A stretch of 62,357 nt of DNA from Candidatus Saccharimonadia bacterium (GCA_041907025.1 JAYRIB010000062.1:1-62357); one strand, 5' to 3'; numbered from the stretch's first letter, positions 4,936 to 45,329 are shown. Numbers and translations: made by a program. Notes: a model not told the origin generated them from the letters alone.

Positions 4936-5915
4936 ACGACCTTCTTTAGTAACGAGTAGAGCATGTACTTGCTACTTTTGAGCGGCAAGTCCCAGGTGCC
5001 GACTGAGCTCACTGTGTCACCGCCAATCGACTTCTTAAACTTTGTGTGGCCTGCCCACGGATGACTGGCTGGTGCACCTTCTGGTGCCACGCCGCCGTAG
5101 TCAAAAGCCTTAAGGCCTTTAGCCTGAGCATCCATAATCAACCACCAAAGCAGCGCAATGGCAGCTTTGAGTTTGTTATTCTGCTCTGGGAACGTACCAG
5201 CATAGATGTAGTAGCGCGTACCCTCGAAGTCCACGCAAAAAGCGCTCGCTATCCTCTCGCCCTCGTGTTCTACAAAGTACAGCTTAGCTTGGCCAGTTGG
5301 TAGCAAGCTCTTAGTCAGCTGATAATAATAGTTATTCGCCTGTGGCTTCCAGCCACCGCGCTGGGCAGTAGCGTGCTGCATGGCCAAGAAGTCGGCTGTG
5401 TCTTTGGGGTCCTCGCTGATCACAAACTTGAGTCCGCGCTTAGCAGCGGTGTTGATGAGGTTACGATTGCTTGGTGACATAGCGTGGCGAATGGCCGCTT
5501 CGGTCTGCGTGAGGTCGAGCACCATGCGGTGCGGTGGTTGCATGTCGGCTACTGGTCGGGCGCCCAGCTTGCGCAAGTCTGCGGCCTTAATTTCTACGTT
5601 GCCCATAGGCTCAAAGCGCACAAAGTCTGCATTGTGGGTTTTGCCCGCGTCGCGCAAACTTTTTAGCGCCGCGCGCAAACTTTTTAGGTCACTCACCGTT
5701 GGCCCATAAGCTGCATACAAATAATTGAACCCAAGTCGGCCATGGCGAATGGCCGCCGTCCATTGCCAGCCATTTTCCCCCTCTTCGCCCTCGTCCATTA
5801 GCACTTGGCGGCTCTGCGCGTTCTGGAACTCCGCCCACAATGAGGACTGAAAGGCGTGCCCGCCAAGCTTGGCAAGGCGTGCGTCCCAATCCTTTGGCAT
5901 GTCTACGAGTGTCAT
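4932..5915 (-). CDS. FemAB-family aminoacyltransferase, second tandem paralog
   Basis: Start set at M89 of the 415-aa track ORF (MTLVDMPKDWDARLAKLGGHAFQSSLWAEF...). TGGTACAAT lies 7 nt upstream, giving a leaderless arrangement. The track's N-terminal extension runs into the opposite-strand GC-rich cassette. Confidence 0.8.
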   Translation of the reverse strand: MTLVDMPKDWDARLAKLGGHAFQSSLWAEFQNAQSRQVLMDEGEEGENGWQWTAAIRHGRLGFNYLYAAYGPTVSDLKSLRAALKSLRDAGKTHNADFVRFEPMGNVEIKAADLRKLGARPVADMQPPHRMVLDLTQTEAAIRHAMSPSNRNLINTAAKRGLKFVISEDPKDTADFLAMQHATAQRGGWKPQANNYYYQLTKSLLPTGQAKLYFVEHEGERIASAFCVDFEGTRYYIYAGTFPEQNNKLKAAIALLWWLIMDAQAKGLKAFDYGGVAPEGAPASHPWAGHTKFKKSIGGDTVSSVGTWDLPLKSSKYMLYSLLKKVV

Positions 5916-7631: not shown

Positions 7632-7982
7632 TTAAGCCTCATTCCCTTCGGTGCCTTCGTCTTCGTCCCCCTCATCGTCAATTTCGGCGTCTGCAAACGA
7701 CGGCTCGCCGGGTTCATTCTCATCTGGGCCACTCTCTCCAGCCTCGTCTGGCTCATCTGGCTCTATGTCTTCAGTCTCGGGCTCATAGCCTTCATTGCCC
7801 CATCCAGCGTGCACCAACCTACTGCCTGCTTCTCGGATTCTTGCAAGCCTCTTTGGTTTCTCATTATTACTTCCTGCTGCAATCTCCTCGAGTTCCCTAC
7901 CAAGTTGTTGGCCCTTAGTAAGCCCCCCCTCTTCTTGGTTGGATTCTAATTCTGGGCTGACGCCATCTGGTCCTGTTGACAT
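7632..7982 (-). CDS. Acidic, low-complexity hypothetical protein
   Basis: 116 aa, with an extremely Glu/Asp/Pro/Gly-rich C-terminal half. Native-like composition. No family recognised. Confidence 0.55.
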   Translation of the reverse strand: MSTGPDGVSPELESNQEEGGLTKGQQLGRELEEIAAGSNNEKPKRLARIREAGSRLVHAGWGNEGYEPETEDIEPDEPDEAGESGPDENEPGEPSFADAEIDDEGDEDEGTEGNEA

Positions 7983-8032
7983 AGTGTGTTCCTTTTTATT
8001 TTCTTGCTTAAGAAAGTGAGCGTACGATCTGG

Positions 8033-8455
8033 CTACCTCTTCTGTTTTGGCTTACTGTTACCATCGTGTGACTCGACGTCTCTAGTGGGTTCGAATACAT
8101 CCTCACCTGATTGGGTGCGGCTCTTGGGCATACGTGCTCCTGGCTCAGTAAATACTTCGTCTGCCACACCTACTGGCATAATGTCGGTTGGGTTTTCGAG
8201 CGTTGGGCGTGGAGTTACTTCGGTAGAGACTGCCTGGCCACCGCTCGACAATTCTGTAGCGAGGTGTTGGTCACGGCCATAAACCTCCGTACGTCCGTCG
8301 TATAACTCCCCGTGTGCTGTCATACCACTTTCGTCGTGATACGTTTCTGCGACAAAATCCCCCTTCACACCGGAGGCCGATGCTCCAGCCATTCGCTCGG
8401 TCGAGGAACTTTGTTGTGCTTTTAGAGTGCCTGAACTTGGTTCGGTGAACGTCAT
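8033..8455 (-). CDS. Hypothetical Ser/Thr/Glu-rich protein
   Basis: Start moved to the ATG at 8455 (MTFTEPSSG...), which follows AAGGAG by 5 nt. No domain recognised. Confidence 0.5.
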   Translation of the reverse strand: MTFTEPSSGTLKAQQSSSTERMAGASASGVKGDFVAETYHDESGMTAHGELYDGRTEVYGRDQHLATELSSGGQAVSTEVTPRPTLENPTDIMPVGVADEVFTEPGARMPKSRTQSGEDVFEPTRDVESHDGNSKPKQKR

Positions 8456-8574
8456 GAATCTCCTTTTTGTTTTTGTGATGTTGCTACCATTATAGCAAAC
8501 CATAAGCGTCTTGTCAAGTTGACTCTAGTGTTCCCCTTCTGGAACTTGAGCGTGGTTTGAGCTATACTTTGGCC

Positions 8575-15609: not shown

Positions 15610-15671
15610 GGTTGCCAGACCTCAAAACTGGCACTACCCAAGTTCATAACGAAAGTTGTGAGTTTAGGTGG
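15610..15671 (+). repeat. Two-hairpin repeat, copy 1
   Basis: GGTTGCCAGACCTCAAAACTGGCACTACCCAAGTTCATAAC-GAAA-GTTGTGAGTTTAGGTGG. It starts 8 nt after the stop codon of the 15198..15602 ORF. Confidence 0.85.
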
Positions 15672-15756
15672 TTGAGCTACTACAACTGTTGCATTTGTGC
15701 AAAATTGGAATATACTCCTAAATACCTTCCATCCTTCCTTAGAAAGGCGATAGCAC

Positions 15757-16382: not shown

Positions 16383-16445
16383 GGTTGCCAGACCTCAAAA
16401 CTGGCACTACCCAAGTTCATAATCTTTAATTGTGAGTTTAGGTGG
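16383..16445 (+). repeat. Two-hairpin repeat, copy 2
   Basis: The first 40 nt and last 16 nt are identical to copy 1. The loop-closing pair changes from C-G to T-A, and the loop from GAAA to CTTTA. It starts 6 nt after the stop of the 15757..16377 ORF. Confidence 0.85.
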
Positions 16446-16552
16446 CAGCTCATAGGTCATTGTTGTTACGGTTGATTATCATAAGGTAATTGTGCTCTAA
16501 TAGCCTAGATCGAATTCGGTCAAACTGTCCCCTAGATGGAGAAGTACCTAGC

Positions 16553-17137
16553 ATGAGAGCACTTTTGTCTGTGTATGACAAGGCGGGCATCGTTGAGCTG
16601 GCTCAACAGCTTCACGACCTCGGCGTTGACCTCGTTTCGAGCGGGGGTACGGCTGACGTCATCGAAGCAGCCGGGATTCCCGTAACGCGGGTCGCCGACC
16701 TGACTGGCTACCCGGCCATGTTGAGCCACCGCGTTGCCACGCTCCACCCGAAGATCCACGGTGGCCTGTTGGCCGACAGGGACAACCCCGAGCACCTGGC
16801 CGAGGTCGAGAGGTACGAGATCCCCTTGATCGACCTGCTGGTCGTCAACCTCTACCCCTTCACCTCGGAGCCGTCGATCAAGCAGATCGATGTGGGTGGA
16901 CCGGCCATGATCCGTGCAGGTGCCAAGAACTATGCCTTCGTCGGAGTGGTGACTGACCCCGCCGACTACGACGTGGTGGTGAGCGAGATCAAGTTGTTCG
17001 GCAACCTGATGCTCAGCAGCCAACAACGGCTCGAGCTGGCTCGGAAGGCATTCGCCCACACCGCCGAGTACGACACCGCCATCGCTGCCTGGTTCCAGGA
17101 CGTGACCATCGATTCCGACGTCGGAAGCAGCACTTAA
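16553..17137 (+). CDS. Stand-alone PurH N-terminal domain (MGS-like IMP cyclohydrolase domain) with no AICAR transformylase domain
   Basis: 194 aa. ALLSVYDKAGIVELAQQL..GVDLVSSGGTA....G.PVT.V...TG.P.ML..RV.TLHPKIHGGLLA...VVNLYPF matches the PurH IMPCH domain. The ORF ends just after the domain boundary (AEYDTAIAAWF). GC3-rich. Confidence 0.75.
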   Translation: MRALLSVYDKAGIVELAQQLHDLGVDLVSSGGTADVIEAAGIPVTRVADLTGYPAMLSHRVATLHPKIHGGLLADRDNPEHLAEVERYEIPLIDLLVVNLYPFTSEPSIKQIDVGGPAMIRAGAKNYAFVGVVTDPADYDVVVSEIKLFGNLMLSSQQRLELARKAFAHTAEYDTAIAAWFQDVTIDSDVGSST

Positions 17138-17936: not shown

Positions 17937-17965
17937 TTGACTTGCTCTATATATTATAGTACAAT
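17937..17965 (+). promoter_or_regulatory. Sigma70-like promoter of the dikinase operon
   Basis: TTGACT-17 nt-TACAAT in an AT-rich spacer. It predicts a leader of about 150 nt. Confidence 0.55.
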
Positions 17966-18055
17966 ATGCGCCTATTAACTTTGTATTAATTGCAGGAGTA
18001 CAAACACTCCTTTGACAACTGCATAGTTCAAAAAGTGTGCTGGCATAAGGTATGC

Positions 18056-18099
18056 GAATCAGCGAATAGTCTTTCGGCCGGAAGATTGTTCGCTGATTC
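18056..18099 (+). promoter_or_regulatory. 44-nt perfect palindrome (about 20-bp hairpin or operator) abutting the RBS
   Basis: GAATCAGCGAATAGTCTTTCGG|CCGGAAGATTGTTCGCTGATTC. Every position pairs (three are G-T). It ends 12 nt before AGGAGG and 20 nt before the ATG at 18120. Confidence 0.6.
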
Positions 18100-18119
18100 G
18101 ACTACCCCTAGGAGGAACC

Positions 18120-20306
18120 ATGTCAGCACCGCGCCAAGTGGTATTCCTCTTCAACGAGGGAGGCCAGGCAACCAAAACTCCCGCGTTTCGCGGCGGCAAG
18201 GGTGCAGGTTTGGCGGACATGGCGGCCCTCGGGCTTCCGGTTCCTCCAGGCTTCACCATCGCTACTTCGGTGGCACGTGCATTCGCCGAGACAGATCAAC
18301 TGCCTCGGCGGCTCGAAGGTCAAATCCGACGAGCCATGCGCAGCATCGAAAGCGAGAGTGGCTTCACGTTCGGTGACCCCAGTAACCCACTGTTGGTATC
18401 GGTGCGCTCCGGCGCTCCGGTTTCCATGCCCGGGATGATGGACACCGTGCTGAACGTTGGCCTACAAGAAAGCATGCTTGAGTCGCTCGAGCGCGTCAGC
18501 GGACGAGAGTTCGCTCAGGACACATACGAGCGCTTCTTGCGTCAATTTGGATCCGCAGTCCTCGATCTCCCGACCGAAGACGATCAGCTTCTCATCAAGG
18601 AGTCGGCGAGCCTCGTGCCCGATGACCCCTACGAACAGTTGATTATGGCAATCCGAGCCGTTCTGCTCTCCTGGAACAGCGATCGCGCGTGCGCGTACCG
18701 CGACAACCAGGAGATCCCTCACTGGTGGGGGACAGCAGTTACCGTTCAGGCCATGGCCTTTGGTAACCGAGATGATCGGTCGGCAACCGGCGTGGTGTTT
18801 AGCCACGACGTCAACTCAGGCGCCGAGGGTCTCACTGGAGAATTCCTCGTTCGCGCCCAGGGTGAAGACATCGTGAGTGGGACAACCTCGCCACAGTCGA
18901 TTGCGTGCATGCAAGCCTGGCATCCGCAGCTCTTCCAAGAGCTTCAAGACCAGGTTCGTCTGCTCTCAGACCATCTCGACAGCATGGTCGATGTTGAGTT
19001 CACCGTTGATAGCGGCAAGCTCTTCATCCTCCAGGTACGACGTGCTACACGCACTCCACTCGCTGCGGCGACCTTCGCGGTTCGTCGTGTGTGGAGTAGG
19101 CGATGGACTCACGGCGAAGCTGTTGCAAGCCTGAGCAAGGCAGAGCTTTCCCAGCTCGATTCAAGCCAGGCCAAGCTGTCAGGAGACTCTTTGCGACTTG
19201 CCGCCTGCGGTGTTGCTGCTTCAAGCGGCTGCGCGGTAGGCGAAGTCGTCTATAGCTCCCAGCGGGCAGTAGAACTTGCCAAGACTGGTCGGCAGGTAGT
19301 TCTGGTTCGTCCAGATACATCACCCGACGACCTACCCGGCATGCTGGCTGCAGTTGCGGTCGTTACGGCTCGTGGCGGCATGAGCTGCCACGCAGCTGTA
19401 GTCTGCCGCGGTCTCAACCGACCGGCAGTCGTTGGCGCCAGCGGCCACCTTACCACTCTGGGCACAAAGCCCTCGGAAGGTGTGGTCGTTTCCGTCGACG
19501 GCGCTACGGGCAAAGTCTACTTCGGCGAGCAGCCGATCCTCGGAGGTATCAACTCCAAAGAGGCACGACTGATCAAAGAGTGGGTCAAGCAGCCGATGCC
19601 TCGCAAAATCGAGTTCAACACGCTCGATCAGCGAGTTTCGGCGAACGCCTATCTGGCCGCTTTCTACATGACCGAGGCCATGGCTTACCAGTCCCGCGGC
19701 AGCGAACTGGAGGCACAAGCACGGGAGCTTCATGAGTCGGTCGTAGCCACGATCGCCCCATACTTCGCCACTTACCTGGCCCTGGCCACTGGTGGCGAAG
19801 TCCGTCACTACAAAGGCAGCTTCCTCCATAAAGCTCCAAATGAGCTAGTAGTGGACTTCCATGCTACTGCAATGCTCAGCGCGAACAGCCGTGAGCGGGC
19901 GCAACTGGAGACAGCGGTCATCCTCGACGGCATTAGTGTTAAGCGACAAGCTCGGTTCACCGAACTCGTAGCGCGCACTTTTGCGATAGAGGACGAGTGG
20001 TCGAGCGCTTATGGCGGCCCGAGGTGGGCCAAGATCGCCGAGACACTGCACGACTACATTGGAGGAACTACACCGGCAGCCGTGTTCGTCGATGCGGTTT
20101 TCGACCTGCGCCACAATGGCGGGGTGCTCTTCAACAAGCACCCAATGTTCACCGAGAAGACTAATGAGCACGAGCTGCATCACATGCTCGAGCTCAAGAA
20201 GACCCGCACCATCCAGGAGTTGTGGCTAGAATTTGGCTGCGTTGACGTGGCTGACTTCTGGTGGAGCGGGTTGTACATCAAGGGCCACAAGGCAAAACTA
20301 TGGTGA
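18120..20306 (+). CDS. PPDK/PEP-synthase-family dikinase (ATP-grasp plus swivel phospho-His domain) with an unrecognised C-terminal domain
   Basis: 728 aa. The N-terminus GGKGAGLADMAALGLPVPPGFTI matches the PPDK nucleotide-binding domain. The mobile-domain motif TARGGMSCHAAVVCRGL carries the catalytic His. The last ~230 aa (contains GGEVRHY, YGGPRWAKIAE and DLRHNGGVLFNKHP) do not resemble the PEP/pyruvate TIM barrel. Strong RBS AGGAGG. Confidence 0.8.
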   Translation: MSAPRQVVFLFNEGGQATKTPAFRGGKGAGLADMAALGLPVPPGFTIATSVARAFAETDQLPRRLEGQIRRAMRSIESESGFTFGDPSNPLLVSVRSGAPVSMPGMMDTVLNVGLQESMLESLERVSGREFAQDTYERFLRQFGSAVLDLPTEDDQLLIKESASLVPDDPYEQLIMAIRAVLLSWNSDRACAYRDNQEIPHWWGTAVTVQAMAFGNRDDRSATGVVFSHDVNSGAEGLTGEFLVRAQGEDIVSGTTSPQSIACMQAWHPQLFQELQDQVRLLSDHLDSMVDVEFTVDSGKLFILQVRRATRTPLAAATFAVRRVWSRRWTHGEAVASLSKAELSQLDSSQAKLSGDSLRLAACGVAASSGCAVGEVVYSSQRAVELAKTGRQVVLVRPDTSPDDLPGMLAAVAVVTARGGMSCHAAVVCRGLNRPAVVGASGHLTTLGTKPSEGVVVSVDGATGKVYFGEQPILGGINSKEARLIKEWVKQPMPRKIEFNTLDQRVSANAYLAAFYMTEAMAYQSRGSELEAQARELHESVVATIAPYFATYLALATGGEVRHYKGSFLHKAPNELVVDFHATAMLSANSRERAQLETAVILDGISVKRQARFTELVARTFAIEDEWSSAYGGPRWAKIAETLHDYIGGTTPAAVFVDAVFDLRHNGGVLFNKHPMFTEKTNEHELHHMLELKKTRTIQELWLEFGCVDVADFWWSGLYIKGHKAKLW

Positions 20307-20314
20307 AAGGAGCC

Positions 20315-20788
20315 ATGATGCCAAGAAGCCATCAGCCCCACGTTGGCGCAAGCGTCAGTGTGGGGGGATACAGTGTGTATGTCGGGGGCAGTCAGGACCT
20401 GGCAGGCGCACCGGACATCTTCCGCGAGATGGACATCATCATCCCTCTCAACGGCATAGTGTCAACCATCTTCGAGGGCACAGTGCTCCCCATCGTCCTT
20501 CAGGACTTCGGTGGAGTACCCCGCGACTGGGAGCAGATCCTGCGCGAGCAGGTCATCCCGGCTCTCGAAGCGGACAAAAGGGTTCTCGCCTACTGTACGG
20601 CCGGCCACGGTCGCACAGGTACGTTGCTGGCATCGCTCGTTGCGCTGCTGGAACCAGACATCGAGGACCCGATTGCCACGGTACGCGCGCGTCACTGCGA
20701 GCACGCTGTGGAAACCCGAGCACAGGCGGAGGCCATCTTCGCCCTGCTCGACCAACCCATCCCAGAGCCGTACACGAGGCTCTACTAG
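20315..20788 (+). CDS. Cys-based (CX5R) protein-tyrosine / dual-specificity-type phosphatase
   Basis: 157 aa. The P-loop CTAGHGRTG fits C-x5-R-[ST]. AAAGGAG RBS. The start lies 9 nt after the dikinase stop. Confidence 0.75.
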   Translation: MMPRSHQPHVGASVSVGGYSVYVGGSQDLAGAPDIFREMDIIIPLNGIVSTIFEGTVLPIVLQDFGGVPRDWEQILREQVIPALEADKRVLAYCTAGHGRTGTLLASLVALLEPDIEDPIATVRARHCEHAVETRAQAEAIFALLDQPIPEPYTRLY

Positions 20789-20804
20789 GCCGAAAGGGGC
20801 CACC

Positions 20805-21167
20805 ATGAGGCAGCAAGACAAGCAGAAGTGGTACATGGGGGGAACGGAGGGCACCGGGGAGTACCTGGTGATCGCCCGAGCTCCCTACCGCGGCAGGATC
20901 GGCGTACGCCTCCTGCCGGGCGGGATCGTGCGCATCCGCGTCGAGCCCGTCAACACTGCCGCAGCGCAGCGGCTGGCTGAGCACTTCCCCGTCGGGGAGT
21001 GGAAGCAGCCCGACCTCGGTCAGCTGCGGTTCTCGCGGGTGCTCAGCGCCAGCGAGGCCATCCCGGTGATCGAGGCGGCCATCACGGCGCTCAACACCAG
21101 GGGCCTGGAGCCCAACTCCAAGGCCCGTACCTGGCGCCGCAAGCTCCGCTCGCACGCGGGCGGCTGA
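20805..21167 (+). CDS. Hypothetical 120-aa protein, third gene of the dikinase operon
   Basis: ATG 5 nt after GAAAGGGG and 17 nt after the phosphatase stop. GC3-rich. No motif recognised. Confidence 0.55.
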   Translation: MRQQDKQKWYMGGTEGTGEYLVIARAPYRGRIGVRLLPGGIVRIRVEPVNTAAAQRLAEHFPVGEWKQPDLGQLRFSRVLSASEAIPVIEAAITALNTRGLEPNSKARTWRRKLRSHAGG

Positions 21168-21222
21168 GACCAGAACGCATCCGGGTGCGCATAGATAGTG
21201 GCTGGGCCCGGAATCCCAGTCA

Positions 21223-21251
21223 TTGACATTCAGCACGTTAAGTGCTAAAGT
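21223..21251 (+). promoter_or_regulatory. Sigma70-like promoter of an ORF-free GC-rich unit
   Basis: TTGACA-17 nt-TAAAGT. A second possible promoter, TTGGCG-18-TAATAC, lies at 21407-21436. Confidence 0.45.
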
Positions 21252-21257
21252 GATGCT

Positions 21258-21832
21258 CTCAGCCAATCAAAGGAGATGCTGTGAGTTAAAGAGAAGCCAA
21301 AAAGAAGCTGTAGTAGAGGTTTTGGTTGTGTGGCTCATCGAGCCCCGGGACCCCTTTGCCGGTACGCAGGGACAGTCTACACTTGAAAAGCTAAAGTAAA
21401 ACCATGTTGGCGTGAGGTTTGTTTTTAAGATAATACTCATGCTAACAGTGGCTGCCATGCGCCGAAGGGTTGATTGTAACTTCGGTTACATTTGCCCAAG
21501 CGTGGTCTGGAGTCAGTTCCCTGTCCGGATTGACTTCAGTATGTAGGCCTTGTGGCGCCCAGCAGGGTGTCTCGGCAGAATGCGGCCTGGCAACCGCAGC
21601 GTAGACAGAACGCAGGCAAGCTACCTTGGAGTGGGTAGTGTAAAGTGCCATCACGGAGCAGGGCAGCAGCCCTAGGCGACGGCGAGGTTTCGGGTTACTG
21701 TATTAGTGTACCGAGACCAGCTATCGCGACAATCGGTCCGGAGCTCCTACCTAATCTAAAAAAATCTTTTGCACTCGTGCAGGAGTGGCCCCTCCCGGAC
21801 GCTTTGGCGTTTAGGAGGGGCTCTTTCTTTTC
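21258..21832 (+). ncRNA. Candidate structured non-coding transcript(s) of about 0.4-0.58 kb, class unknown
   Basis: Bounded by a promoter and a terminator. No ORF has a start context. Many local hairpins (e.g. GTAAC-TTCG-GTTAC). GC-rich relative to its flanks. Confidence 0.35.
21788..21832 (+). terminator. Intrinsic terminator
   Basis: GCCCCTCC-18 nt-GGAGGGGC followed by TCTTTCTTTTC. Confidence 0.65.
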
Positions 21833-21842
21833 CCCGAAAGAT

Positions 21843-21905
21843 GGTTGTCAGACCCTAAAACTGGTACTACCCAAGATCATAACTTAGCGTTGTGAGTTTA
21901 GGTGG
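21843..21905 (+). repeat. Two-hairpin repeat, copy 3 (diverged)
   Basis: GGTTGTCAGACCCTAAAACTGGTACTACCCAAGATCATAAC-TTAGC-GTTGTGAGTTTAGGTGG. There are 5 substitutions in the first 40 nt; the two that fall in hairpin 1 both convert Watson-Crick pairs to G-U pairs. Confidence 0.8.
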
Positions 21906-21920
21906 TAAGCAGGGTAAGGG

Positions 21921-33637: not shown

Positions 33638-36040
33638 ATGATGCGAACTCTTCGTAAAGCAATTCTTCTATTATTCGGCCAACTAGCGCTAGTTAGCCTA
33701 TTGTTGTTTGTGGTGCTTTTAGTACCCTCAACGTCGCATGCTGCAAACTCCAAAGTCCCTAGTGCCTATGCGGCAGTAGACAAAGACGGGGGGCTAAGCA
33801 TCTCTGGTACAGAGTTCTTCTGTGATTTTGCCAGCACGGCCGAGGTAATTTGCAAAAGAAGTTCGACCGCAAGCGAACTCACGGCCGACGGTACATCAAA
33901 AGAAATGTCATATTGGTTTGACCCGGAGTTATCTAAAAAAGCAGGGCACGATGTATTCAGACCCGACGGCGGCACTCGGCAAGCCGAGTTTGGCTGGCTC
34001 CACTTCCCTAGGTCCGCTCAAGGAGACTACTCACTCGGTCAAGTATCGACCAGCTCCTTAGATGGCGAGGGTGGTGTTTACGACGATGATGTAAATACGG
34101 ATAAGTTTAAAAAGGATGTAGGGGACACTTCAACCTGCTCAGTAAGGAAGTTCCGCAATGGGAAGGGTACTATTACCTGTAAGATCGGGGGCAGCAAGGG
34201 GGGTAGGAGCGTAACCGTAACTCAGTACAAAACGGGTTATTCAAACTTTACAGAGCTAAAGAAGTGCGACAAGGGCGGGCTTGGTTTTTTCCTCTGCCCA
34301 ATTCAAAACATGTTCTGGGACACCATTAGGCTTACTACTGGTTGGATAGGCAACATATTAGACGTCAATACAAGTAATTTTCAGAACACTACCATAAGGG
34401 AGGCGAGCAATAATCTTCTCGGAGTAGCTAACGCCGTCTACGCCCTTGTTTTTCTGGTTATTATATTTGCTAACGGCCTCTCCTTGAACCTAGATAGCTA
34501 CATGCTGAAGAAGATGGTACCGCGACTCGTAGTAGCTATTATTCTTTCGCAATTCGCATTCTTCCTCACAGGCGCCTTTATTGATTTTGGAAACGTTCTA
34601 GGCAGAGGTGTGCAGGCCTTCTTTGAGCAGCTAGCCCCTGTCACCAACCCAGGGGCTGGCCTCTTTGCCGTCAGTGCAATTGCTGGTTTGGGAATAATGA
34701 TCGCGTTGATACTGTCTCTGTTTATATTAATTGCCATACTCATTGCGTTGGTGGTACTCATGATTCGACAAGCTATTCTTTATGTACTAATACTGGTCGC
34801 GCCGCTAGCTATTGCCGCCAGGGTACTACCGAATACTGATAAGCTCTTCAAAATGTGGCTCGATAACCTCATTAAGCTAGTGCTCATGTACCCTATAGTC
34901 GTAGCAATCATATCTGGTTCAGCATTCTTGGGCAGCGTTATGATGGGCAACAAGAACTCTTTAGCAATTCAGATTATGGGAGTGTTGTTGCCATTCATTG
35001 GGCTTGCACTATTGCCTAAAGCATTTAAGTGGAGCGGCAATATAATGCATGCTACTGGTGGCAAGCTGGCTGGCTGGGGTGCTGGAGGCTTTAAAAAAGG
35101 AGTTGTTCAGCCACTCAAAGGGGCTGCCAAAGACACTCTTAATGACCAAAGACGCCTCCAGGGCGCGAAGCTTGCGGCCTCAGACAGCAAGCTAGCACAG
35201 CTGGGTAGCGGAGTCGTTGGAGGAAAACTTGGCGCATCACTCCAAACCAGAAAGGGCCATGCAGAGCGTCTCCGCATGCAGGCAAATGCAGCAGCCGAAG
35301 AACGCAAGCTAGAAGACGCGAAAATGTCAGTACTCAGTGGTCCAGCTCTCCACAAAGAAGCTGAGGAAGCTGGTAAAGCTCTGGCTAAAAACCCAGCCGA
35401 TATTCGGGCTAAGGCCAGGATGGAGTCAGTGTTAGCTCGTGCCGGAGCAGTGAGTGATATGAACGCCGTTGCGCGAGCGAACAACGCGTTCACCTCATCG
35501 ATGACAGATAAGGTTGCTGCAAATGATACTTGGGGTAGTGCTCTGGGAAATTCAGGTATCATGGGTGATATCAAAGAGAAGAGTCCAGAACTTAGTAGTG
35601 TTGGTACGTTCTCGTTCGATGCTGCAGGCAGCAGGAGCCTAGATGAGACATGGTCGGTAAAAGACCAGGGTAAGCACGCTGGGGGCACTGGAACTGGTAC
35701 ACCTAATGGAGTTCGTATTGCAGTAACTAACACTAAAGCAATTGATCTTAGTGGTAAGAACCGCTCGGGGCTTGCGGGTCTTTCAAAGGACACTGTCAAA
35801 TCTATAGCTACCGCTGTGGCCGACCCAGCTTCTAGAGCTGCTCAGCTCAAGAGCCTAAGTATTGAAGAAATGGGGCAATTAACCGATCCACGCTACGCTC
35901 CAAAGGATCCTGGAGCGAAGGAACATTGGAGGAAAGTTGCCGATGCTGTTGTCGCTGACTATGGCGCTCTAGCAGCAACCGACCCTGCAGCCAGGGCAAA
36001 GGTTAATGCTGCAAATCAAATTATTCGCGCAGGGTGGTAA
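33638..36040 (+). CDS. VirB6/TrbL/PrgH-like polytopic T4SS channel protein
   Basis: 800 aa. N-terminal signal/TM, a ~250-aa Cys-containing extracytoplasmic domain, at least 6 hydrophobic helices (e.g. LFAVSAIAGLGIMIALILSLFILIAILIALVVLMI), and an Ala/Lys-rich tail. Assigned by topology and by its position next to the PrgI-like and VirB4 genes. Confidence 0.6.
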   Translation: MMRTLRKAILLLFGQLALVSLLLFVVLLVPSTSHAANSKVPSAYAAVDKDGGLSISGTEFFCDFASTAEVICKRSSTASELTADGTSKEMSYWFDPELSKKAGHDVFRPDGGTRQAEFGWLHFPRSAQGDYSLGQVSTSSLDGEGGVYDDDVNTDKFKKDVGDTSTCSVRKFRNGKGTITCKIGGSKGGRSVTVTQYKTGYSNFTELKKCDKGGLGFFLCPIQNMFWDTIRLTTGWIGNILDVNTSNFQNTTIREASNNLLGVANAVYALVFLVIIFANGLSLNLDSYMLKKMVPRLVVAIILSQFAFFLTGAFIDFGNVLGRGVQAFFEQLAPVTNPGAGLFAVSAIAGLGIMIALILSLFILIAILIALVVLMIRQAILYVLILVAPLAIAARVLPNTDKLFKMWLDNLIKLVLMYPIVVAIISGSAFLGSVMMGNKNSLAIQIMGVLLPFIGLALLPKAFKWSGNIMHATGGKLAGWGAGGFKKGVVQPLKGAAKDTLNDQRRLQGAKLAASDSKLAQLGSGVVGGKLGASLQTRKGHAERLRMQANAAAEERKLEDAKMSVLSGPALHKEAEEAGKALAKNPADIRAKARMESVLARAGAVSDMNAVARANNAFTSSMTDKVAANDTWGSALGNSGIMGDIKEKSPELSSVGTFSFDAAGSRSLDETWSVKDQGKHAGGTGTGTPNGVRIAVTNTKAIDLSGKNRSGLAGLSKDTVKSIATAVADPASRAAQLKSLSIEEMGQLTDPRYAPKDPGAKEHWRKVADAVVADYGALAATDPAARAKVNAANQIIRAGW

Positions 36041-36048
36041 AGTAGGCG

Positions 36049-36885
36049 ATGCCACAGTACAAAGTCCCCCAAAACGTAGAGAGCGAAGACACAATCCTTG
36101 GTCCGTTGACGATCAAGCAGTTCATCTATGTCGTGATTGCGATTGGGTGGGGGTTCTTATGCTGGCGCGTGATAGGAGTAGCTCCTGTGGTGGCGATTGC
36201 GCTCATCCTACCAGTCTCAGGACCACTGCTGGCCTTGGGCTTGATTCGTCGTGAGGGTCAGAGCTTCGAAACTTACTTTGTTGCGATGATTCGCTTTTTG
36301 CTTGTACCGCGCAAACGAACCTGGCACAAAGACGAGGCTAGGGTGATTATTAAAGCCGAAGAAAAGAAGCCGATTGAGCAAATGCCGACGCGTAATCAAG
36401 CCCAGGTACGCGGCGAGCTCCGCAAACTCGCTACCATTGTAGATAGTCGCGGACGCATCCCCAAGGGCACCGACGTGCAGGCGGCCGATGCCAATGTAGC
36501 CGGCAGCGCGCTTAGTCAACGCGTCGTAACGCCAGAGGCTACCCAAGTAGCAGGGGAGATTATATCCACCAAAGTTGCGGCTCCCCGCACCGACATGCTC
36601 GACATGCAACACAACCCACAGGCTGTCGCGGTTGGTGAACTACTTAAGACCTCTGGAGACGATATGCGGGCGCAAGCAATTGCCAATATGCAAAAGGCGG
36701 CCACGGAATCCGCTGCCACACCTGCGCCGCAAGCACAAGCACCTTCGCAAGACGAGGGTCAAAATGCTATACTACAAAGAGCAGTGCAAAACAGCGATAC
36801 CATATCTGTTCAGCAACTTTCTGACCAGGTGAATCGCCAAAACGTACTGCAACAAGGCAAAAGCGCACAAGTTCGCCAAGCCTAA
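36049..36885 (+). CDS. PrgI-family (VirB3-like) T4SS membrane protein with a long Ala/Gln-rich tail
   Basis: The N-terminus YKVPQNVESEDTILGPLTIKQFIYVVIAIGWGF, followed by a second helix, is the PrgI/TcpE-type signature. Confidence 0.6.
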   Translation: MPQYKVPQNVESEDTILGPLTIKQFIYVVIAIGWGFLCWRVIGVAPVVAIALILPVSGPLLALGLIRREGQSFETYFVAMIRFLLVPRKRTWHKDEARVIIKAEEKKPIEQMPTRNQAQVRGELRKLATIVDSRGRIPKGTDVQAADANVAGSALSQRVVTPEATQVAGEIISTKVAAPRTDMLDMQHNPQAVAVGELLKTSGDDMRAQAIANMQKAATESAATPAPQAQAPSQDEGQNAILQRAVQNSDTISVQQLSDQVNRQNVLQQGKSAQVRQA

Positions 36886-36922
36886 TTTTTCGCTTTAGTA
36901 CTAATACCGCAGGTAACTTAAG

Positions 36923-37963
36923 ATGGCCAACGTAGCTCAACCTAATCCTCATATCACGGACCAACAGCGCCAAGCTCTGGCCTCTGTAACGCCGCCTAAA
37001 TCCAAGAAGGACCAGCGCGCCAGTACTCAGAATCACCTGATGTTCTCCGAAGTCCGTGACAACATCGTCGTCATGCGCGACGGCTCACTGCGCATGGTAA
37101 TCTTGGCTTCAGCCCTCAACTTCGACCTTAAGAGTGCCCGCGAACAAGCGGCAATTGAGTACTCATTCCAAGGATTCTTAAACGGCCTGCACTTTCCTGT
37201 TCAAATCATTGTGCGCTCACGCAAGATTGATTTAGATAACTACCTAACTAAGCTTGAGCAACGCCAGGCGGAGCAAGAAAACGCTCTGCTGGCCGGACTG
37301 ATGGAAGACTATATATTCAACATCCGCGGGCTCCTCGAGGACGTTAACATCATGTCGAAGTCGTTTTACGTGATTGTACCGTACTTTGTGCAAGCAGTTA
37401 GCAAGGATAATATAGCTAGCAAGATAAGTAGCTTACTGAAGGCGAGCGAGGACGTGGTGCAAAGCAGCGCTGATTACGAAACGCACAAGCGGGACTTGTT
37501 GCAGCGCACTAATTTGGTCGCTCAAGGCTTAGCGCAGATCGGGGTGCGCGCCGCTGTTCTGTCCACTCAGGAGCTGATTGAACTTTACTATGGTTCATAT
37601 AACATCGATGAAGCTCAGAACCAGCCACTTGGCGATGTGGAGGGCATTAGCACCCCAGTGGTTGGTCGCTCGGGCCCTGCCCCTGCACCACACGGCCCAG
37701 AACCACGAGCTGCGGACCCCGACGACATGTTTGCGGCAGCACGTCACGCCCATCCAGAAATGCACGCTGTGCCAACACCAGCCCCGGTAGCGGCACCAGT
37801 CCCAGCAGCAACCCCTACACCGCAAGCTGCGCCCGTGCCACAAGCCACTACTGCTCAGCCTAGTTCTGTAGCTCAAGCAGCGCCTCAACAAGCTCCACAG
37901 AGTGTAGTGGCTCAGCCTGGGCAAGCAACTCAGATAAGTCAGCAACCAGGAGGGCAGAAGTAA
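36923..37963 (+). CDS. T4SS-associated protein: VirB4-N-terminal-like domain plus a Pro/Ala/Gln-rich tail
   Basis: VRDNIVVMRDGSLRMVILASALNFDLKSAREQAAIEYSFQGFLNGLHFPVQIIVRSRKIDLDNY resembles the first domain of VirB4/TraC proteins. No Walker motifs. Its stop overlaps the virB4 start (TAATG). Confidence 0.5.
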   Translation: MANVAQPNPHITDQQRQALASVTPPKSKKDQRASTQNHLMFSEVRDNIVVMRDGSLRMVILASALNFDLKSAREQAAIEYSFQGFLNGLHFPVQIIVRSRKIDLDNYLTKLEQRQAEQENALLAGLMEDYIFNIRGLLEDVNIMSKSFYVIVPYFVQAVSKDNIASKISSLLKASEDVVQSSADYETHKRDLLQRTNLVAQGLAQIGVRAAVLSTQELIELYYGSYNIDEAQNQPLGDVEGISTPVVGRSGPAPAPHGPEPRAADPDDMFAAARHAHPEMHAVPTPAPVAAPVPAATPTPQAAPVPQATTAQPSSVAQAAPQQAPQSVVAQPGQATQISQQPGGQK

Positions 37964-39816
37964 TGGCCGACAAAAAGCCTAAGATTGACCCAAAGGTTCA
38001 AGCCGAGATTAATCGCCGCTTAGCCGTCCAAGGCCAGGCAGACAAGATCTACCGCGAAGGCGTAGTCAGTTTGCGTGATATCATTGCGCCGGCCTCGTTC
38101 GAAGTAGAAAGTAACTTCCTTAAAATCGGTAAGCGCTATGCGCGCACGCTGTTTGTCTTTGGTTACCCCCGCACCTTGTTCACGGGATGGCTTTCGCCTT
38201 TGATTAACATTGATGAGGTCATCGACATTAGCCTCAATATTATCCCAGTGGAGAGCAAAGTAGTACTTGATAACCTGCGCAAGAAGGTAGGGCAACTGGA
38301 GGCTAACTACAACATTAACCAAGAAAAGGGTAAGGTTCGTGACCCAGGATTAGAAGCCGCCATTCAAGATGCTGAGGAGTTGCGCGACAGCCTGCAAGTC
38401 GGCTCGGACCGATTCTTCCGCTTTGGGCTTTACATTACCCTCTACGGTAAAGACCTCGAAGAGCTCGACCTGGTTGGGCGTAAGATCGAAAGCATGCTCG
38501 GCAGTAGTCTGATCTACACCAAGCCAGCTACCATCCAGATGGAGCAGGGCTTTAACTCTACCCTGCCACTCGGCCTCGACCAACTCAATGTCTACCGCAA
38601 CATGAACACTGGTGCGCTCTCAACGTCTTTTCCGTTTACCACCGCCGAGCTCAGTCAAGACGACGGTGTGCTCTACGGTATTAACAGGCACAACAATGGC
38701 CTGGTCATCTTTGATCGCTTCAGCTTAGAAAACGCCAATATGGTGGTGTTTGCCAAGTCGGGTGCTGGTAAAAGTTTCGCGATTAAGCTGGAGTGTTTGC
38801 GTTCCCTCATGATGGGTACCGAAGTCGTCATTGTTGACCCCGAAAACGAATACCGGACCTTGTGTGACGCGGTCGGCGGAAGCTACCTACACCTTTCACT
38901 TAACAGTAATACCCGCGTCAATCCGTTTGATTTGCCAACCACCGTTGATCCTGAGGAGGCCGAGAACGCCCTGCGCGCCAACATCATCATGCTGCATGGC
39001 TTGCTCCGGCTGATGGCAGGGGAGATGAACCCAACAGAAGAAGCCGACATGGATATGGCGCTGATTAATACCTATGCGCGCAAAGGTATTACCAACGATC
39101 CGCTCACTCACACGGCCGTACCACCCGTTATGTCCGACCTCTACAACGAGCTCAACGCCATGCCAGGCACTGGCCCAGCACTGGCGTCACGCTTGCGCCG
39201 CTTTACCGAAGGCACGTTCTCGGGTATCTTCTCCCAACAATCAAACGTTGAGCTCAACAATAAGTTTGTGGTCTTTAACATTCGCGACCTCGAAGATGAG
39301 CTTAGGCCAATTGGCATGTATATTGTACTGAACTACATTTGGAACCGCGTGAAGACTGACAAGCGCAAGCGCATCCTGGTAGTAGATGAAGCCTGGCAAC
39401 TACTACAGTACCAAGACTCAGCCATGTTTATGTTCTCGATTGCCAAGCGCGCCCGTAAGTACTTCCTAGGCCTCACGACCATCTCGCAAGATGTAGAGGA
39501 CTTCTTAAGCACCCGCTTAGGCCGGGCAATTGTAAACAACTCCTCGCTTCAACTCTTGCTCAAACAAAACCCTGCGGCTGTCGATATTGTGGCTGACACT
39601 TTTAAGCTCACCACTGAGGAGCGTAGTCGGCTCAGCCAGTTCCCAGTTGGTGAAGGGTTATTCTTCGCCGGTATGAGCCATGTAATTCTACGCATTCTCG
39701 CTTCGCCTATGGAGGAGCAGTTGATTAGTACGAACCCGCAATACTTACTTGATCAACGTGAAGCCCAGGCGAGTGCGGACGCAGCCGCGCTGGCCGCCAG
39801 AACGGCGCCTCAATAA
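37963..39816 (+). CDS. virB4: VirB4-family T4SS ATPase
   Basis: 617 aa. Walker A FAKSGAGKSFAIK, Walker B ILVVDEAW, and the downstream GLTTISQ motif. Confidence 0.88.
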   Translation: MADKKPKIDPKVQAEINRRLAVQGQADKIYREGVVSLRDIIAPASFEVESNFLKIGKRYARTLFVFGYPRTLFTGWLSPLINIDEVIDISLNIIPVESKVVLDNLRKKVGQLEANYNINQEKGKVRDPGLEAAIQDAEELRDSLQVGSDRFFRFGLYITLYGKDLEELDLVGRKIESMLGSSLIYTKPATIQMEQGFNSTLPLGLDQLNVYRNMNTGALSTSFPFTTAELSQDDGVLYGINRHNNGLVIFDRFSLENANMVVFAKSGAGKSFAIKLECLRSLMMGTEVVIVDPENEYRTLCDAVGGSYLHLSLNSNTRVNPFDLPTTVDPEEAENALRANIIMLHGLLRLMAGEMNPTEEADMDMALINTYARKGITNDPLTHTAVPPVMSDLYNELNAMPGTGPALASRLRRFTEGTFSGIFSQQSNVELNNKFVVFNIRDLEDELRPIGMYIVLNYIWNRVKTDKRKRILVVDEAWQLLQYQDSAMFMFSIAKRARKYFLGLTTISQDVEDFLSTRLGRAIVNNSSLQLLLKQNPAAVDIVADTFKLTTEERSRLSQFPVGEGLFFAGMSHVILRILASPMEEQLISTNPQYLLDQREAQASADAAALAARTAPQ

Positions 39817-39849
39817 GCTATAATAAGGCTATGAAGAAAGTATTGTACG

Positions 39850-42800
39850 ATGGCTCGACCAGCTGAGAGACTCGAAGATGACCGCCAAGAGGGTGGACTA
39901 CTTGATAATGACTTAGGTATACAACCACGCAGCAGCCGCGTAGGACAGGGCGCCTCTGAACATGGTGAGAATATCCGTGTGAGCCCAGTACAGCAAGGGA
40001 TTCATACCTCGAGTGGTCCTGGCGGCTCAGGACCAACACCCTCTGAGAAGCATAGTCTTAAAGATGGGAAAGCTATTGACCCGCAAAGCGCACTTACAAA
40101 AAAAGCTGCGGGAAAAGCACTAGACCACACTCCCGGAATGGTATCGAAGGCTGAGCAGGCTGAGCAAGGATCACTTGAGAAAGCTGGTCGCAAAGCTGCT
40201 TCTAAGGTTGCTAAAAAAGCAGCTCAGGCAGCCGCAACAGATTCAGGAGTCGGTGCGCCACTTGCAAAGGCAGCTGGCGATATTGCAGAAGAAGCTGTTA
40301 AGCGAATTGATGTCAAAGGTGGTGCCAAGAAGAGCGTCAAGGTAGTTGCTATTGCAGCTTTTGGTTTTATTGTTGTTGCTATGCTGCCTTTACTAATGTT
40401 TACATATATCGTCACTCAGCCATGGAAAGCGGTACAACAGGTTTTAAAGGACTCTAGTTTTACAAACTTTGCACTCAGTGCTCGTAAACTTGCTATTGGC
40501 GATGGTAATAATCAAACATTAATGGCTATCGCGGGCAGCATGCCATATGAGGCGGACTACAAACCTGGTAGCGCCATTGCTGCGACTGCAGGTCAGCGCC
40601 CAGAGCCAGGCACCCTGCTAGATGTAATATCAAAAGTTGATTATGAAAAATCACGCAACTTGTTTAAAAATGTGAGCTGTCCCTACAAGGTTAAAACTAA
40701 GCAAGTGGTCGCTAGTGATGGTGCGCAAAGAGCAGTTATTGACAAGGTAGTAGATGCAAAGGGGGATACGGCTGATATCGCAGATGCTGATGTGTTTGAC
40801 TGTATCCTTGAACAATATCCTGTTTTCGAAGCTATGATGCGTAGCCCCGAAGCACGCAAGATCAATAAGCAAATGAAGATAAATCTGTCCTACGCAGAGA
40901 AAAAGGACTCGGAAGCTATAAAAGATAAGCCTAAGGAAGAAGTAAAAAGGGTACTCCATAAGAAGACCACAGACCGAGTTTGGCGAAACGCTAAAGATAC
41001 TAAAGGTCTCTTATACCCAGACAGCTGTCAGGAAGACTTCAAGCCTACGGGAGACAAAGCAAATAAAGCAATCTTGGAAGTTGCGAACGACTTATTGTGT
41101 GGAGATTTAGCTGAGAATATTCAAATCAACTACCCCGTCGAAGACTTAGATGATGACTTTAGTAAGCAGACTGTCAAGCAGCGCATTGATGAGGCAGATG
41201 TTATATGTGTTTTCTATGATAAGCTCAACGCTGACCCTGAGGCCGCCAAGAAGCAACGATATGATAGGGCACTTTCTTCAGCAAGAGCTGGAATTTCAGC
41301 ACTTACACTAGCGGACACTGGAGTGGTGCCGGGTGACATATCTGTAGAGGAATTAGATAATGATTTCTATAAAATATCAAATTTTGCATCCTCACGAGCT
41401 TATAATCAAGAAATTAATGGTACGAGAAACGGTGTTCAGATGGACCCAGAGGCGATACCGACAAGAGCTATCGGCCTGACTAAAGCATACTTTGACAGCC
41501 TATCCGATCCTAATCGACCTGGGGGACAGTTATTAAACCTGGGGGAGCAGTGTAAAAAATTCAAAGCAAACAAACCCACTACTTTGACTCAAAATGTAAG
41601 AGATATTCAGAGCTTAGCGGCAATCGCAAAAGGGCAAATAGCGCGCGAGAATCAAGACTTTTACGGCGGCACTTCGGCAAATCTTGTCTCTACTAACGAC
41701 CTTATTATCCGCACAATCAGGTTGGTTTCAAACATAAGTAACAGTGGTGCTGAGGGAGGTGAGAACAACTTTAACCGTATGACAGTAGGAGCTAAAAACA
41801 CAATGTATAACTACACCATCTCGCTACTTGGGGGTAGCTATCAAACAGATGCGCAGGCAAACGAGGACAGTATAGCAGTTGGAGTTATGAAAAAAAATCG
41901 AGATAAGCAGAGTAGTATGCTTGCTCGTATATTTGATACGAAAAACCCACGTTCTCTAGCTTCCAGGATCGCTGCTGGCTCTACCGCAACACCGAAGCAG
42001 ATTACCGAGAATACCACGCGTTACGCTGTTAATATCCTAAACCCTATCAAGGCACTTGCTGATATTAATGCCGGAATTGCATTCATTGGTTACGGTGAGA
42101 CGAATATTGCCTTGGCAGCCCGAAGTGATGACATGGAGTACTGGAAAATTGACACCACAGGAACTACAACCAATCTCGATACCCTTAAGAATGCTGCATA
42201 CATAGAGAGGCTAAAAAAATCTGGTGCTAACACAGAACTTTTTGCATCCTTTGATAAGTGTATGGAGACCTACTTCCCAGATAAACAAGCTGTAGACGAA
42301 GCTAAAGATGAAAACTGTATGATTATGCGTGAAACAGACGAAGGAAGAAGGTTAGGTGCCGCCAACCCAGCTAAACGTAGTTTGGCTAGGAGCTATGCTA
42401 CTTATAAGGGCAATATGAACTTTTACACCGCTTGGGCCAAGCTTAGTAGCGACGAGCAAGATGACAGTATTTATGCTAAGGGTGAAAACAGTAGTGGTTT
42501 TGGGGTCGGTGGAGCGGTCGGGGCTGATCCAGATGGACCACAGTCTGACCCAGGCGCGGATACATCTGGAACCGATTGTCCTCAAGAGCCCGGCATAACA
42601 ACAGCGCCAGAAGACACTAAGAACGGCGTAGACGCCAAGGGTGTGGTTCAAACATACGGCCCTGGCAGAGTTCCGAAGAATAAGATTAAGCTCTGTGTCG
42701 TACAGGGCATCAGGGTAAATGTCTCGGTAGCGTCTAACCTCAACAAAATGGTGTCAGCAGCTGGCACTAGTGGGCTGGCGTTATCTGGTAGTGGCTGGCG

Positions 42801-45319: not shown

Positions 45320-45329
45320 CTTTTGGACA

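Follow-up and report, generated by a model that had tools for sequence, protein, structure and literature searches.

A horizontally mobile module uniting a PPDK-lineage phosphotransferase with an orphan third domain, a Cys phosphatase and a small basic protein in candidate phyla radiation bacteria and phages

A 62,357-nucleotide stretch of DNA from a Candidatus Saccharimonadia bacterium (GCA_041907025.1, JAYRIB010000062.1:1-62357; hereafter the window, i.e., the whole stretch analysed) carries at positions 17937-21167 of its plus strand a three-gene operon, which an original prediction made from the sequence alone had singled out as an unassigned system. Our study of the three genes, which lie in the same direction and at the predicted positions, revealed a conserved, self-contained and horizontally mobile module. 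Computationally, gene 1 (18120-20306, 728 aa) is identified as a swivelling-His phosphotransferase of the pyruvate phosphate dikinase (PPDK) lineage, in which the TIM barrel binding phosphoenolpyruvate (PEP) or pyruvate is replaced by an orphan domain (hereafter C-dom), gene 2 (20315-20788, 157 aa) as a minimal Cys phosphatase of the dual-specificity phosphatase (DSP) type, and gene 3 (20805-21167, 120 aa) as a small basic protein predicted to adopt another orphan fold. The chemistry of the enzyme belongs to a known kind; what is new is the acceptor domain, the small protein, their fixed partnership, its spread over bacteria of the candidate phyla radiation (CPR) and phages, and a structured RNA found after some of the cassettes. 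Counting about 1255 cluster representatives for the C-dom, over 200 proteins for gene 3 and 117 loci in viruses, they define a large enzyme system featuring two orphan folds; the functions that we assign to it are deduced throughout from the sequences, the predicted structures and the gene context.

The first part of gene 1 (residues 1-479; 18120-19556, plus strand) is composed of an ATP-grasp nucleotide-binding domain (PPDK_N, PF01326; 5.5e-44) followed by a swivelling phospho-His domain (PEP-utilizers, PF00391; 7.1e-20), so that Pfam recovers the PPDK domain order initially proposed, and all the motifs quoted at that time (GGKGAGLADM..., TARGGMSCHAAVV, GGEVRHY, YGGPRWAKIAE and DLRHNGGVLFNKHP) are found in the protein. 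Enzymes of this family load the swivelling His from ATP through the ATP-grasp domain. Here, the catalytic residue is His424, within GGMSCHAAVV, and the motif is kept in 90 of 96 long kinase-Cdom fusions. Both PPDK (TIGR01828) and the short actinobacterial PRK05878 share with gene 1 the ATP-grasp domain, the swivelling His (GGxxxHAAVV), the domain order and the linker helix after the His domain, but the scores of gene 1 lie below the curated NCBIfam cut-offs (458.8 vs. 843.45 for TIGR01828 and 430.8 vs. 456 for PRK05878), alignment to the PPDK equivalog model reaches no further than profile position ~531 out of 865, and Pfam returns no PEP/pyruvate-binding TIM barrel (PF02896). The hypothesis of a genuine PPDK or PEP synthase acting in central carbon metabolism is thus the one to which we give the least credit, close to none. 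Its appeal lies in the first ~500 residues, which are clearly PPDK-like, and in phage papers annotating such kinases accordingly, notably one describing the phage kinase as an auxiliary metabolic gene (AMG) of carbon metabolism, on a modelling basis only (PMC12038007). Yet the barrel is missing in favour of an unrelated helical domain, every curated PPDK cut-off is missed, and the obligatory partners are phosphatases and orphan proteins instead of glycolytic genes. Were the CPR copies, to which the searched sources attach no name, likewise read as PPDK, the glycolytic reconstructions of these reduced genomes would be affected.

The remainder of gene 1 (residues 480-728; 19557-20306, plus strand) starts with a short PPDK-like linker and continues with the C-dom, which is placed where the acceptor domain of PPDK sits. 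Residues ~500-728 have no match in Pfam, NCBIfam or PADLOC, and a C-dom profile run against PDB sequences recovers only the PPDK linker helix at the start of the segment. The AlphaFold2 model of residues 480-728, computed from an alignment of 27 sequences, is all-alpha, with 13 helices (pLDDT 90.1, pTM 0.88). Using this model as a query, Foldseek finds no fold match in the PDB (best E-value 0.2, TM-score < 0.2), while its matches in BFVD are limited to uncharacterised phage proteins (TM-score 0.59-0.66). The tail therefore does not resemble the PEP/pyruvate barrel, as noted at first, nor does it resemble the drug-binding domain of rifampicin phosphotransferase (RPH). Three motifs characterise it: ExRH, YGGxxWxxIA and DxxFxLxHNxGxxF(N/D)K. 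When residues are counted within the 249-aa segment (gene-1 residues 480-728), the invariant ones include E81, G153, G154, W157, D179, H186 and K194, with N187 nearly so, whereas R83 and H84 are widely conserved (ExRH in 83 of 124 family segments). On account of these invariant or near-invariant polar residues, the C-dom is expected to hold the catalytic or substrate site, and we presume it to be the acceptor-binding and catalytic domain. An exhaustive HMMER search at E-value ≤ 1e-3 yielded the 1255 cluster representatives mentioned above. As a side observation, one phage contig (L031, 8 kb) encodes a 671-aa protein with a C-dom-like region (P0135; 1432-3447), preceded by a Metallophos_2 phosphoesterase, and has no PPDK-type kinase, which suggests that the C-dom may pair with other partners too.

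Because this third domain is new, conserved and enzyme-like, the acceptor should be new as well, and we regard the delivery of phosphate to a new acceptor as a strong inference; in chemical terms, the PPDK/PEP-synthase swivelling-His machinery would have gained an additional acceptor. There are precedents for such a change, as RPH and PigC/RedH apply the same ATP-grasp and swivelling-His chemistry to a non-pyruvate acceptor picked by their third domain. That gene 1 could be an RPH-like phosphotransferase of xenobiotics or antibiotics, with gene 2 and gene 3 as accessory or unrelated proteins, is nevertheless very improbable. Although the family does contain small-molecule kinases (RPH) and the His domain weakly matches RPH and PigC/RedH in NCBIfam, the third domain of these enzymes is central and unrelated to the C-dom, these enzymes have no phosphatase partner, the domain order of gene 1 is PPDK-like rather than RPH-like, and the RPH model (NF041857) reaches 30.6 bits against a cut-off of 999, over the His domain only. 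Moreover, a reversing phosphatase, gene fusions and conservation in phages make no sense for drug resistance. Both the genuine PPDK role and the RPH-like drug kinase can be considered as effectively excluded.

The start codon of gene 2 (ATG at 20315, plus strand) lies behind an AAGGAG motif, 8 nt past the stop codon of gene 1. Its product indeed features the Cys-phosphatase P-loop noticed at the outset (CTAGHGRTG, of the C-X5-R-(S/T) type), and the CX5R(T) signature is kept in all 32 phosphatase homologue matches; the catalytic Cys is conserved, as is the catalytic His. A general-acid loop, DFGGVP, is found in gene 2 and in most cellular-type matches, D-x-x-x-P being matched in 16 of the 32 alignments overall, and is similar to the PDFxxP acid loop of DUSP23 and SsoPTP. 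Pfam scores are just below threshold for Tc-R-P (3.1e-5, 24.9 bits vs. a cut-off of 27) and for PTP-SAK, while phage homologues exceed the gathering score of a DSP-PTPase family (33.6 for SIO-2 and 27.9 for DLP3). The nearest solved relatives are SsoPTP (E-value = 1.4e-3) and DUSP23, i.e., small protein-directed protein tyrosine phosphatases (PTPs) or DSPs. The initial parallel with starch and glycogen metabolism, where a dikinase of the same superfamily (glucan, water dikinase) is reversed by a DSP-fold phosphatase (SEX4/laforin), is not supported: at E-value ≤ 0.1, Pfam finds no carbohydrate-binding module in gene 1 or gene 2, and the 157-aa gene 2 is closest to the two small phosphatases just named. 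Glucan, water dikinase also differs from gene 1 in its domain order.

Gene 3 has no match in Pfam, NCBIfam or PADLOC, in agreement with the absence of any recognisable family in the first reading. The protein has a pI of 11 (family median 9.6) and more than 200 homologues, and its AlphaFold2 model (pLDDT 90.1) displays an alpha-beta-beta-beta-alpha-beta-alpha-alpha topology, for which Foldseek returns no significant match in the PDB. Its best matches, chaperones of type III secretion systems and the C-terminal domain of T4 MotA (MotA-CTD), were not accepted as fold relatives (TM-score ~0.4, E-value > 0.04), and the searches of profiles against PDB sequences found nothing. Across 82 sequences, G13, T14, Y20, R35, R43, R45, E47, P48, P69, R75 and S77 are invariant, whereas E15, T17, G18, K67 and Q68 are nearly so (at least 90% for E15, T17 and G18), and there is no invariant His. 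The resulting GTEGTGxY loop is found near the N-terminus, where the model is at its least confident (pLDDT 70-76). Some homologues are fused to other domains: Rho_N in P0240, and TIR in P0218 (L019, 574-1395) and P0270 (L020, 477-1298), the latter two beside HNH-like and HIT genes, which suggests that the gene-3 fold can act as the sensor module of an immune-type effector.

The genes of the trio were found to co-occur widely outside the window, in a fixed order and also as fusions. When one genome per species was scanned with the C-dom alignment as a query, 14 loci were recovered, of which seven have the kinase followed by the C-dom in the order of the window: four Saccharibacteria, one Obscuribacterales, one “Cyanobacteria SZAS LIN-3” and one metagenome-assembled genome (MAG) of Proteobacteria. 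All four elements are present in five of these seven (L005, L006, L008, L009 and L010), while the phosphatase was not detected in L007. On contigs reached by way of gene-3 homologues, these three or four genes recur between housekeeping genes of CPR-type genomes, and the gene order is shared by the window, L004-L011, L021-L025 and L027-L030, with flanks that are not syntenic. Between the window and L005/L006, nucleotide similarity is confined to 18011-21847 and the flanking genes are unrelated, which indicates that the block moves as a cassette. The C-dom can be a separate gene right after a kinase of 488-549 aa (L004, L028), but kinase-Cdom fusions make up 108 of the best 150 C-dom matches; there are also a triple kinase-Cdom-phosphatase fusion (P0129) and four phosphatase-gene3 fusions (P0176, P0204, P0161 and P0185). 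Since the arrangement recurs in dozens of loci independent of each other, and also in fused genes, it is more than chance. None of the PADLOC-DB 2.0 models matches any of the three proteins at E-value ≤ 0.1, and full-text searches on dikinase/PPDK with phage hypermodification, phosphatase or anti-phage defence, which did not extend to one paper on the Rhodanese-phosphatase superfamily, returned no description of the module. As already supposed, the trio thus corresponds to no pathway or defence system among those compared.

The module is not restricted to cells. In GenBank phages, a tblastn search with the C-dom matches hypothetical proteins of ~330 aa in SIO-2/VHS1-like vibriophages, in the Stenotrophomonas phages DLP3, DLP5 and Summit, in the Rhizobium phages RHph_TM16 and Y1_11, and in the Rhodobacter phage RcZahn. 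Each of them encodes a “PPDK” or “kinase” of 650-700 aa at 2-4 kb from the C-dom, with one or two DSP phosphatases in between. Nine phage or prophage loci follow a fixed order: terminase, kinase, two small open reading frames (ORFs), phosphatase 1, C-dom protein, phosphatase 2, a protein that we call X, a small ORF, DNA polymerase I and portal. In SIO-2-like phages, Delepquintavirus DLP3/DLP5 and RHph_TM16, the kinase (34-40% identity), the C-dom and the phosphatase are homologous to those of the window; the phage modules differ from it in having a separate C-dom protein, two phosphatases, an extra C-terminal region of ~170 aa on the kinase and a gene-3-like domain terminating a larger protein, and in lacking an RNA gene after the cassette. 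Two of the phosphatases, VPEG_00063 of SIO-2 (L001) and DLP3_141 (L003), are mislabelled as “thymidylate synthase” in GenBank, whereas both are DSP-type Cys phosphatases (Pfam Tc-R-P/PTP-SAK, CX5R motif), an error by which the search for pathways of DNA modification could be misled; our results hence correct the annotation of these genes along with that of the phage “pyruvate phosphate dikinase” AMGs. Among the 117 IMG/VR loci with a C-dom relative, 70 of the best 80 have both kinase and phosphatase within 7 kb, 63 of the 80 also having X, and six of the ten loci without kinase and phosphatase nearby have less than 3 kb of contig upstream of the C-dom.

As for X, its C-terminal ~110 aa are conserved and, according to hhalign (probability 48%, P = 1.8e-4), match the gene-3 family over its N-terminal half, pairing GTSxGSxYY...KVaaR...LSIRIEG in X with GTEGTGEY...GRVGxR...RIRVEP in gene 3. 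A smaller comparison of the two profiles gives P = 0.005, while gene 3 compared pairwise with the phage X proteins by BLAST gives no match; the X domain is likely to be homologous to gene 3. Separately, a small ORF is conserved right after the phage kinase (L002, 8005-8286; L003, 6528-6869; L001, VPEG_00064; family F6 in L012-L018), and it ends in a motif that, by eye, resembles the RNA-binding protein CsrA (..A.DAP.E(I/V)RI.R...). The sharing of the module by ultra-small episymbiotic bacteria and large proteobacterial phages may be a hint that it takes part in conflicts between virus and host or in the handling of genomes. Similarly, its patchy distribution, its phage copies and the gene3-TIR fusions make a role in virus-host conflict, or in the control of replication and gene expression, likelier than one in central metabolism.

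In the window, gene 3 is followed by a terminator, then by a separate promoter serving the downstream RNA (21223-21251, plus strand; TTGACA-17-TAAAGT with a TG extension) and by an ORF-free region of ~560-590 nt (21258-21845, plus strand), which ends with its own strong terminator (about 21784-21842) and folds far better than shuffled sequences (z = -6.1). This candidate new large structured RNA is conserved along with the cassette in L005 (7690-8265) and L006 (7665-8300), and stretches of 600-920 nt without ORFs come after gene 3 in six further loci, L008 (~7875-8465), L009, L025 (8838-9525), L027, L029 and L030, whose module proteins are only 35-50% identical to those of the window. All nine CPR loci, including the window (21671-21732, plus strand; CCUAG-[8 bp]-GACAA), have in common a hairpin of the form CCUAG-[8-bp stem]-GACA(A/C), with seven to eight of the eight positions paired and with compensatory changes in the stem (A-U to G-C, splitting the sequences four vs. 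four, and G-C to U-A), and the G-U pairs assign the RNA to the plus strand. This conservation extends across three CPR lineages that are divergent from one another. When built on the three closest sequences, a covariance model recovers L030 (E-value = 0.006) and L027 (E-value = 0.026) at the expected place, with no other match in 240 kb.

No Rfam family (including RNase P, tmRNA, SRP, 6S, OLE, ROOL and GOLLD) reaches its gathering score in the window and ten loci, and nothing relevant to this RNA appears at E-value ≤ 10 in three lineages. An identity with RNase P RNA, evoked by a CCUAG...GACAGAA-like resemblance seen by eye, was ruled out by covariance-model tests in the three lineages, and the only contig that the RNA motif retrieved in one scan of metagenomes was known before. 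Since the RNA does not follow the cassette in L007, L010, L011, L021 and L028, nor in any of the 80 viral loci examined, it is not an obligatory component. It may be a fourth component of Saccharibacteria-type systems, possibly a partner of the basic gene-3 protein, or alternatively an independent gene beside which the cassette tends to sit. We also noticed by eye that gene 3 and the RNA of L027 seem to have a tRNA-like sequence between them (~5510-5590; GGTTCGAATCC T-arm).

According to the mechanism that we propose, the ATP-grasp domain would charge His424 from ATP, as its conserved domains and motifs suggest, the His domain would then swing onto the C-dom, which would hold the acceptor and catalyse the phosphoryl transfer, and the gene-2 phosphatase would finally strip that phosphate. 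As the DSP-type phosphatase is obligatory and sometimes fused, the product should be a phospho-ester that is later removed, either in a cycle or by trimming, and since this enzyme would take away the phosphate that was added, the kinase/phosphatase pair would set the phosphorylation level of one specific target. Such a dedicated phosphorylation/dephosphorylation cycle on a new acceptor, which had been put forward as plausible from the start, is well supported as an inference by the conserved catalytic residues, the fixed partnership and the non-barrel tail. Regarding the acceptor itself, the best explanation in our eyes, which we advance tentatively and at less than even chances, is that gene 3 receives the phosphate within a phosphotransfer module reversed by the phosphatase. 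The hydroxyls concerned could be, and we hold this part weakly, those of the invariant and flexible Gly-Thr-Glu-Gly-Thr-Gly-x-Tyr loop. Several arguments favour gene 3: it is the only other universal component, the phosphatase is of the small protein-directed DSP type, the Gly-rich loop bearing invariant Thr and Tyr lies in a flexible N-terminus while a similar loop heads the phage X domain, and there is the precedent of Enzyme I and HPr.

In this precedent, which comes from the phosphotransferase system (PTS), the His domain of a PEP-utiliser phosphorylates a small protein, HPr, while the latter is docked on Enzyme I at a helical subdomain. By analogy, the module might act like Enzyme I on HPr, with a swivelling-His domain serving a small partner (~90-120 aa) that docks on an all-helical domain, except that it would be driven by ATP through the ATP-grasp domain, instead of PEP, and reset by an added DSP phosphatase. 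Other differences with the PTS are that gene 1 is devoid of the PEP-utilisers_N and PEP-utilisers_C domains and scores 20.1 bits with TIGR01417 (cut-off 341.7), and that gene 3 has neither an invariant His nor a fold match to HPr. If gene 3 is indeed the acceptor, its phosphorylation state would switch its binding to nucleic acids, possibly, in Saccharibacteria, to the adjacent RNA of ~560 nt. The link to nucleic acids comes from the basic character of gene 3, the Rho_N fusion (P0240) and the RNA gene adjacent in nine loci.

A number of observations speak against gene 3 being the acceptor. Without an invariant His in this protein, a PTS-type His-to-His relay is excluded, and the transfer to a Thr or Tyr of gene 3 is only assumed. 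The Gly-rich loop and the invariant arginines could equally form a phosphate-binding site, in which case gene 3 would be a reader and not a substrate, and the invariant polar residues of the C-dom would suit a site for a small molecule or a nucleotide just as well. The gene3-TIR fusions of L019 and L020 are encoded on short contigs (4 kb) where neither a kinase nor a phosphatase gene is found, which fits a sensor role for gene 3 better than a substrate role. Furthermore, gene 3 was not detected in L011, its homology with phage X receives moderate support only, from profile-profile comparison, and the neighbourhoods (window and examined cassette contigs) consist of housekeeping genes, with no defence island.

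Another explanation is the modification of nucleic acids or of their nucleotide precursors: the C-dom would present to the phospho-His either a hydroxyl of DNA or RNA or else a (d)NMP, the phosphatase(s) would trim or reverse the product, and gene 3 would be the subunit binding the nucleic acid. The module would contribute to DNA hypermodification in phages and would act, in Saccharibacteria, on the adjacent RNA or on invading DNA. We view it as possible, though on the doubtful side. In its favour, the phage module has a fixed position between terminase and DNA polymerase I/portal, and the DNA of DLP3, a phage bearing the module, resists all 15 restriction enzymes tested (15/15), the nature of the modification being left unidentified (PMC7326821). 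Strong basicity and invariant arginines in gene 3, the Rho_N fusion, the structured RNA following the cassette in nine loci, and the Pfam families matched by gene 2, which take their names from polymorphic-toxin, Swiss-Army-Knife and NAD+-kinase-fused proteins and not from classical signalling phosphatases, all go in the same direction. However, DLP3 also encodes a glycosyltransferase that could account for its modified DNA (PMC7326821), the RNA is missing from five cellular-type arrangements and from 80 of 80 viral loci, and cellular cassettes have no polymerase or nucleotide-metabolism partner. Nor do the C-dom and the phage C-dom proteins match any Pfam family, aGPT-Pplase and 5-HMUDK included, and the C-dom matches no fold in the PDB. 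Thymidine hypermodification of the aGPT-Pplase type was rejected on these grounds, and because the adjacent phage “thymidylate synthases” are in fact phosphatases. In a broader formulation, which we likewise put forward with more doubt than confidence, the module would be an unrecognised phospho-regulatory or modification system, in which the dikinase phosphorylates a non-glucan macromolecule (a dedicated small nucleic-acid-binding protein or DNA/RNA); it would operate in Saccharibacteria together with the RNA of ~560 nt and, in SIO-2/DLP3-type phages, underlie an unidentified step of DNA modification or replication control.

Alternatively, the TIR fusions bring to mind small-molecule signalling or conflict, where the kinase-Cdom protein would make a phosphorylated small molecule, such as a nucleotide derivative, serving as signal or toxin, the phosphatase would degrade it for reset or as an antidote, and gene 3 would be its receptor, with TIR as the effector in some lineages. 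Known immune systems based on nucleotide signalling combine a producer, a degrader and a receptor in this way, the genes of P0218 and P0270 neighbour HNH-/HIT-type genes, the Gly-rich loop of gene 3 combined with its invariant Arg/Lys resembles a phosphate-binding site, and the distribution is patchy and cassette-like, with copies borne by phages. Nonetheless, we consider this scenario as unlikely: none of the three proteins is recognised by a PADLOC model, housekeeping genes and not defence islands surround the module, most gene-3 proteins have no effector domain, and in phages the module belongs to the syntenic core of a lineage instead of being an accessory anti-defence gene.

Upstream of the operon, the predicted native-type promoter exists (17937-17965, plus strand), as a sigma-70-type TTGACT-17-TACAAT matching the consensus at 10 of 12 positions. 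The palindrome described at the ribosome-binding site (RBS) is present too, but it is longer than the 44 nt reported: its two arms of 29 nt each, which are 83% complementary, span 18049-18106 (plus strand) and stop 2 nt before the GGAGG RBS. It is possibly an operator or a translational/attenuation hairpin, and the leader is conserved in L005/L006 from about position 18011. The operon is also GC-rich, as stated at first, with a content of 0.585-0.589 for the module vs. about 0.45-0.55 around it.

Beyond the operon, the window is a piece of a cellular genome, with genes for ValRS, a phosphoglucosamine-mutase-like (GlmM-like) protein, VirB4/TraG-like and VanY/VanW proteins, and four tRNAs. Its nearest relatives in a species-level genome collection are MAGs of Candidatus Saccharibacteria. 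A phage origin was ruled out by these relatives and by ValRS, the GlmM-like protein, the tRNAs and the genes resembling a type IV secretion system. A direct repeat of ~63 nt (83-86% identical copies) occurs three times between genes, all on the plus strand (21843-21906, 15610-15672 and 16383-16445), one copy lying immediately past the terminator of the RNA, on the border of the conserved cassette; its minus-strand translation reads ...MNLGSASFEVWQP... in spurious ORFs, and it could be a REP-like element, a terminator element or a cassette boundary. At 16490-17137 (plus strand), a 215-aa ORF combines an MGS-like domain with only the first ~60 residues of an AICARFT/IMPCHase (PurH) domain, and is either a truncated PurH or a stand-alone protein resembling IMP cyclohydrolase. 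Finally, an apparatus resembling type IV secretion seems to be encoded by a long cluster of co-directional genes (33638-45977, plus strand), among them one for a VirB4/TraG-type ATPase (37963-39816) and one for a protein of 1067 aa that bears a VanY peptidase domain at its C-terminus (39850-43053).

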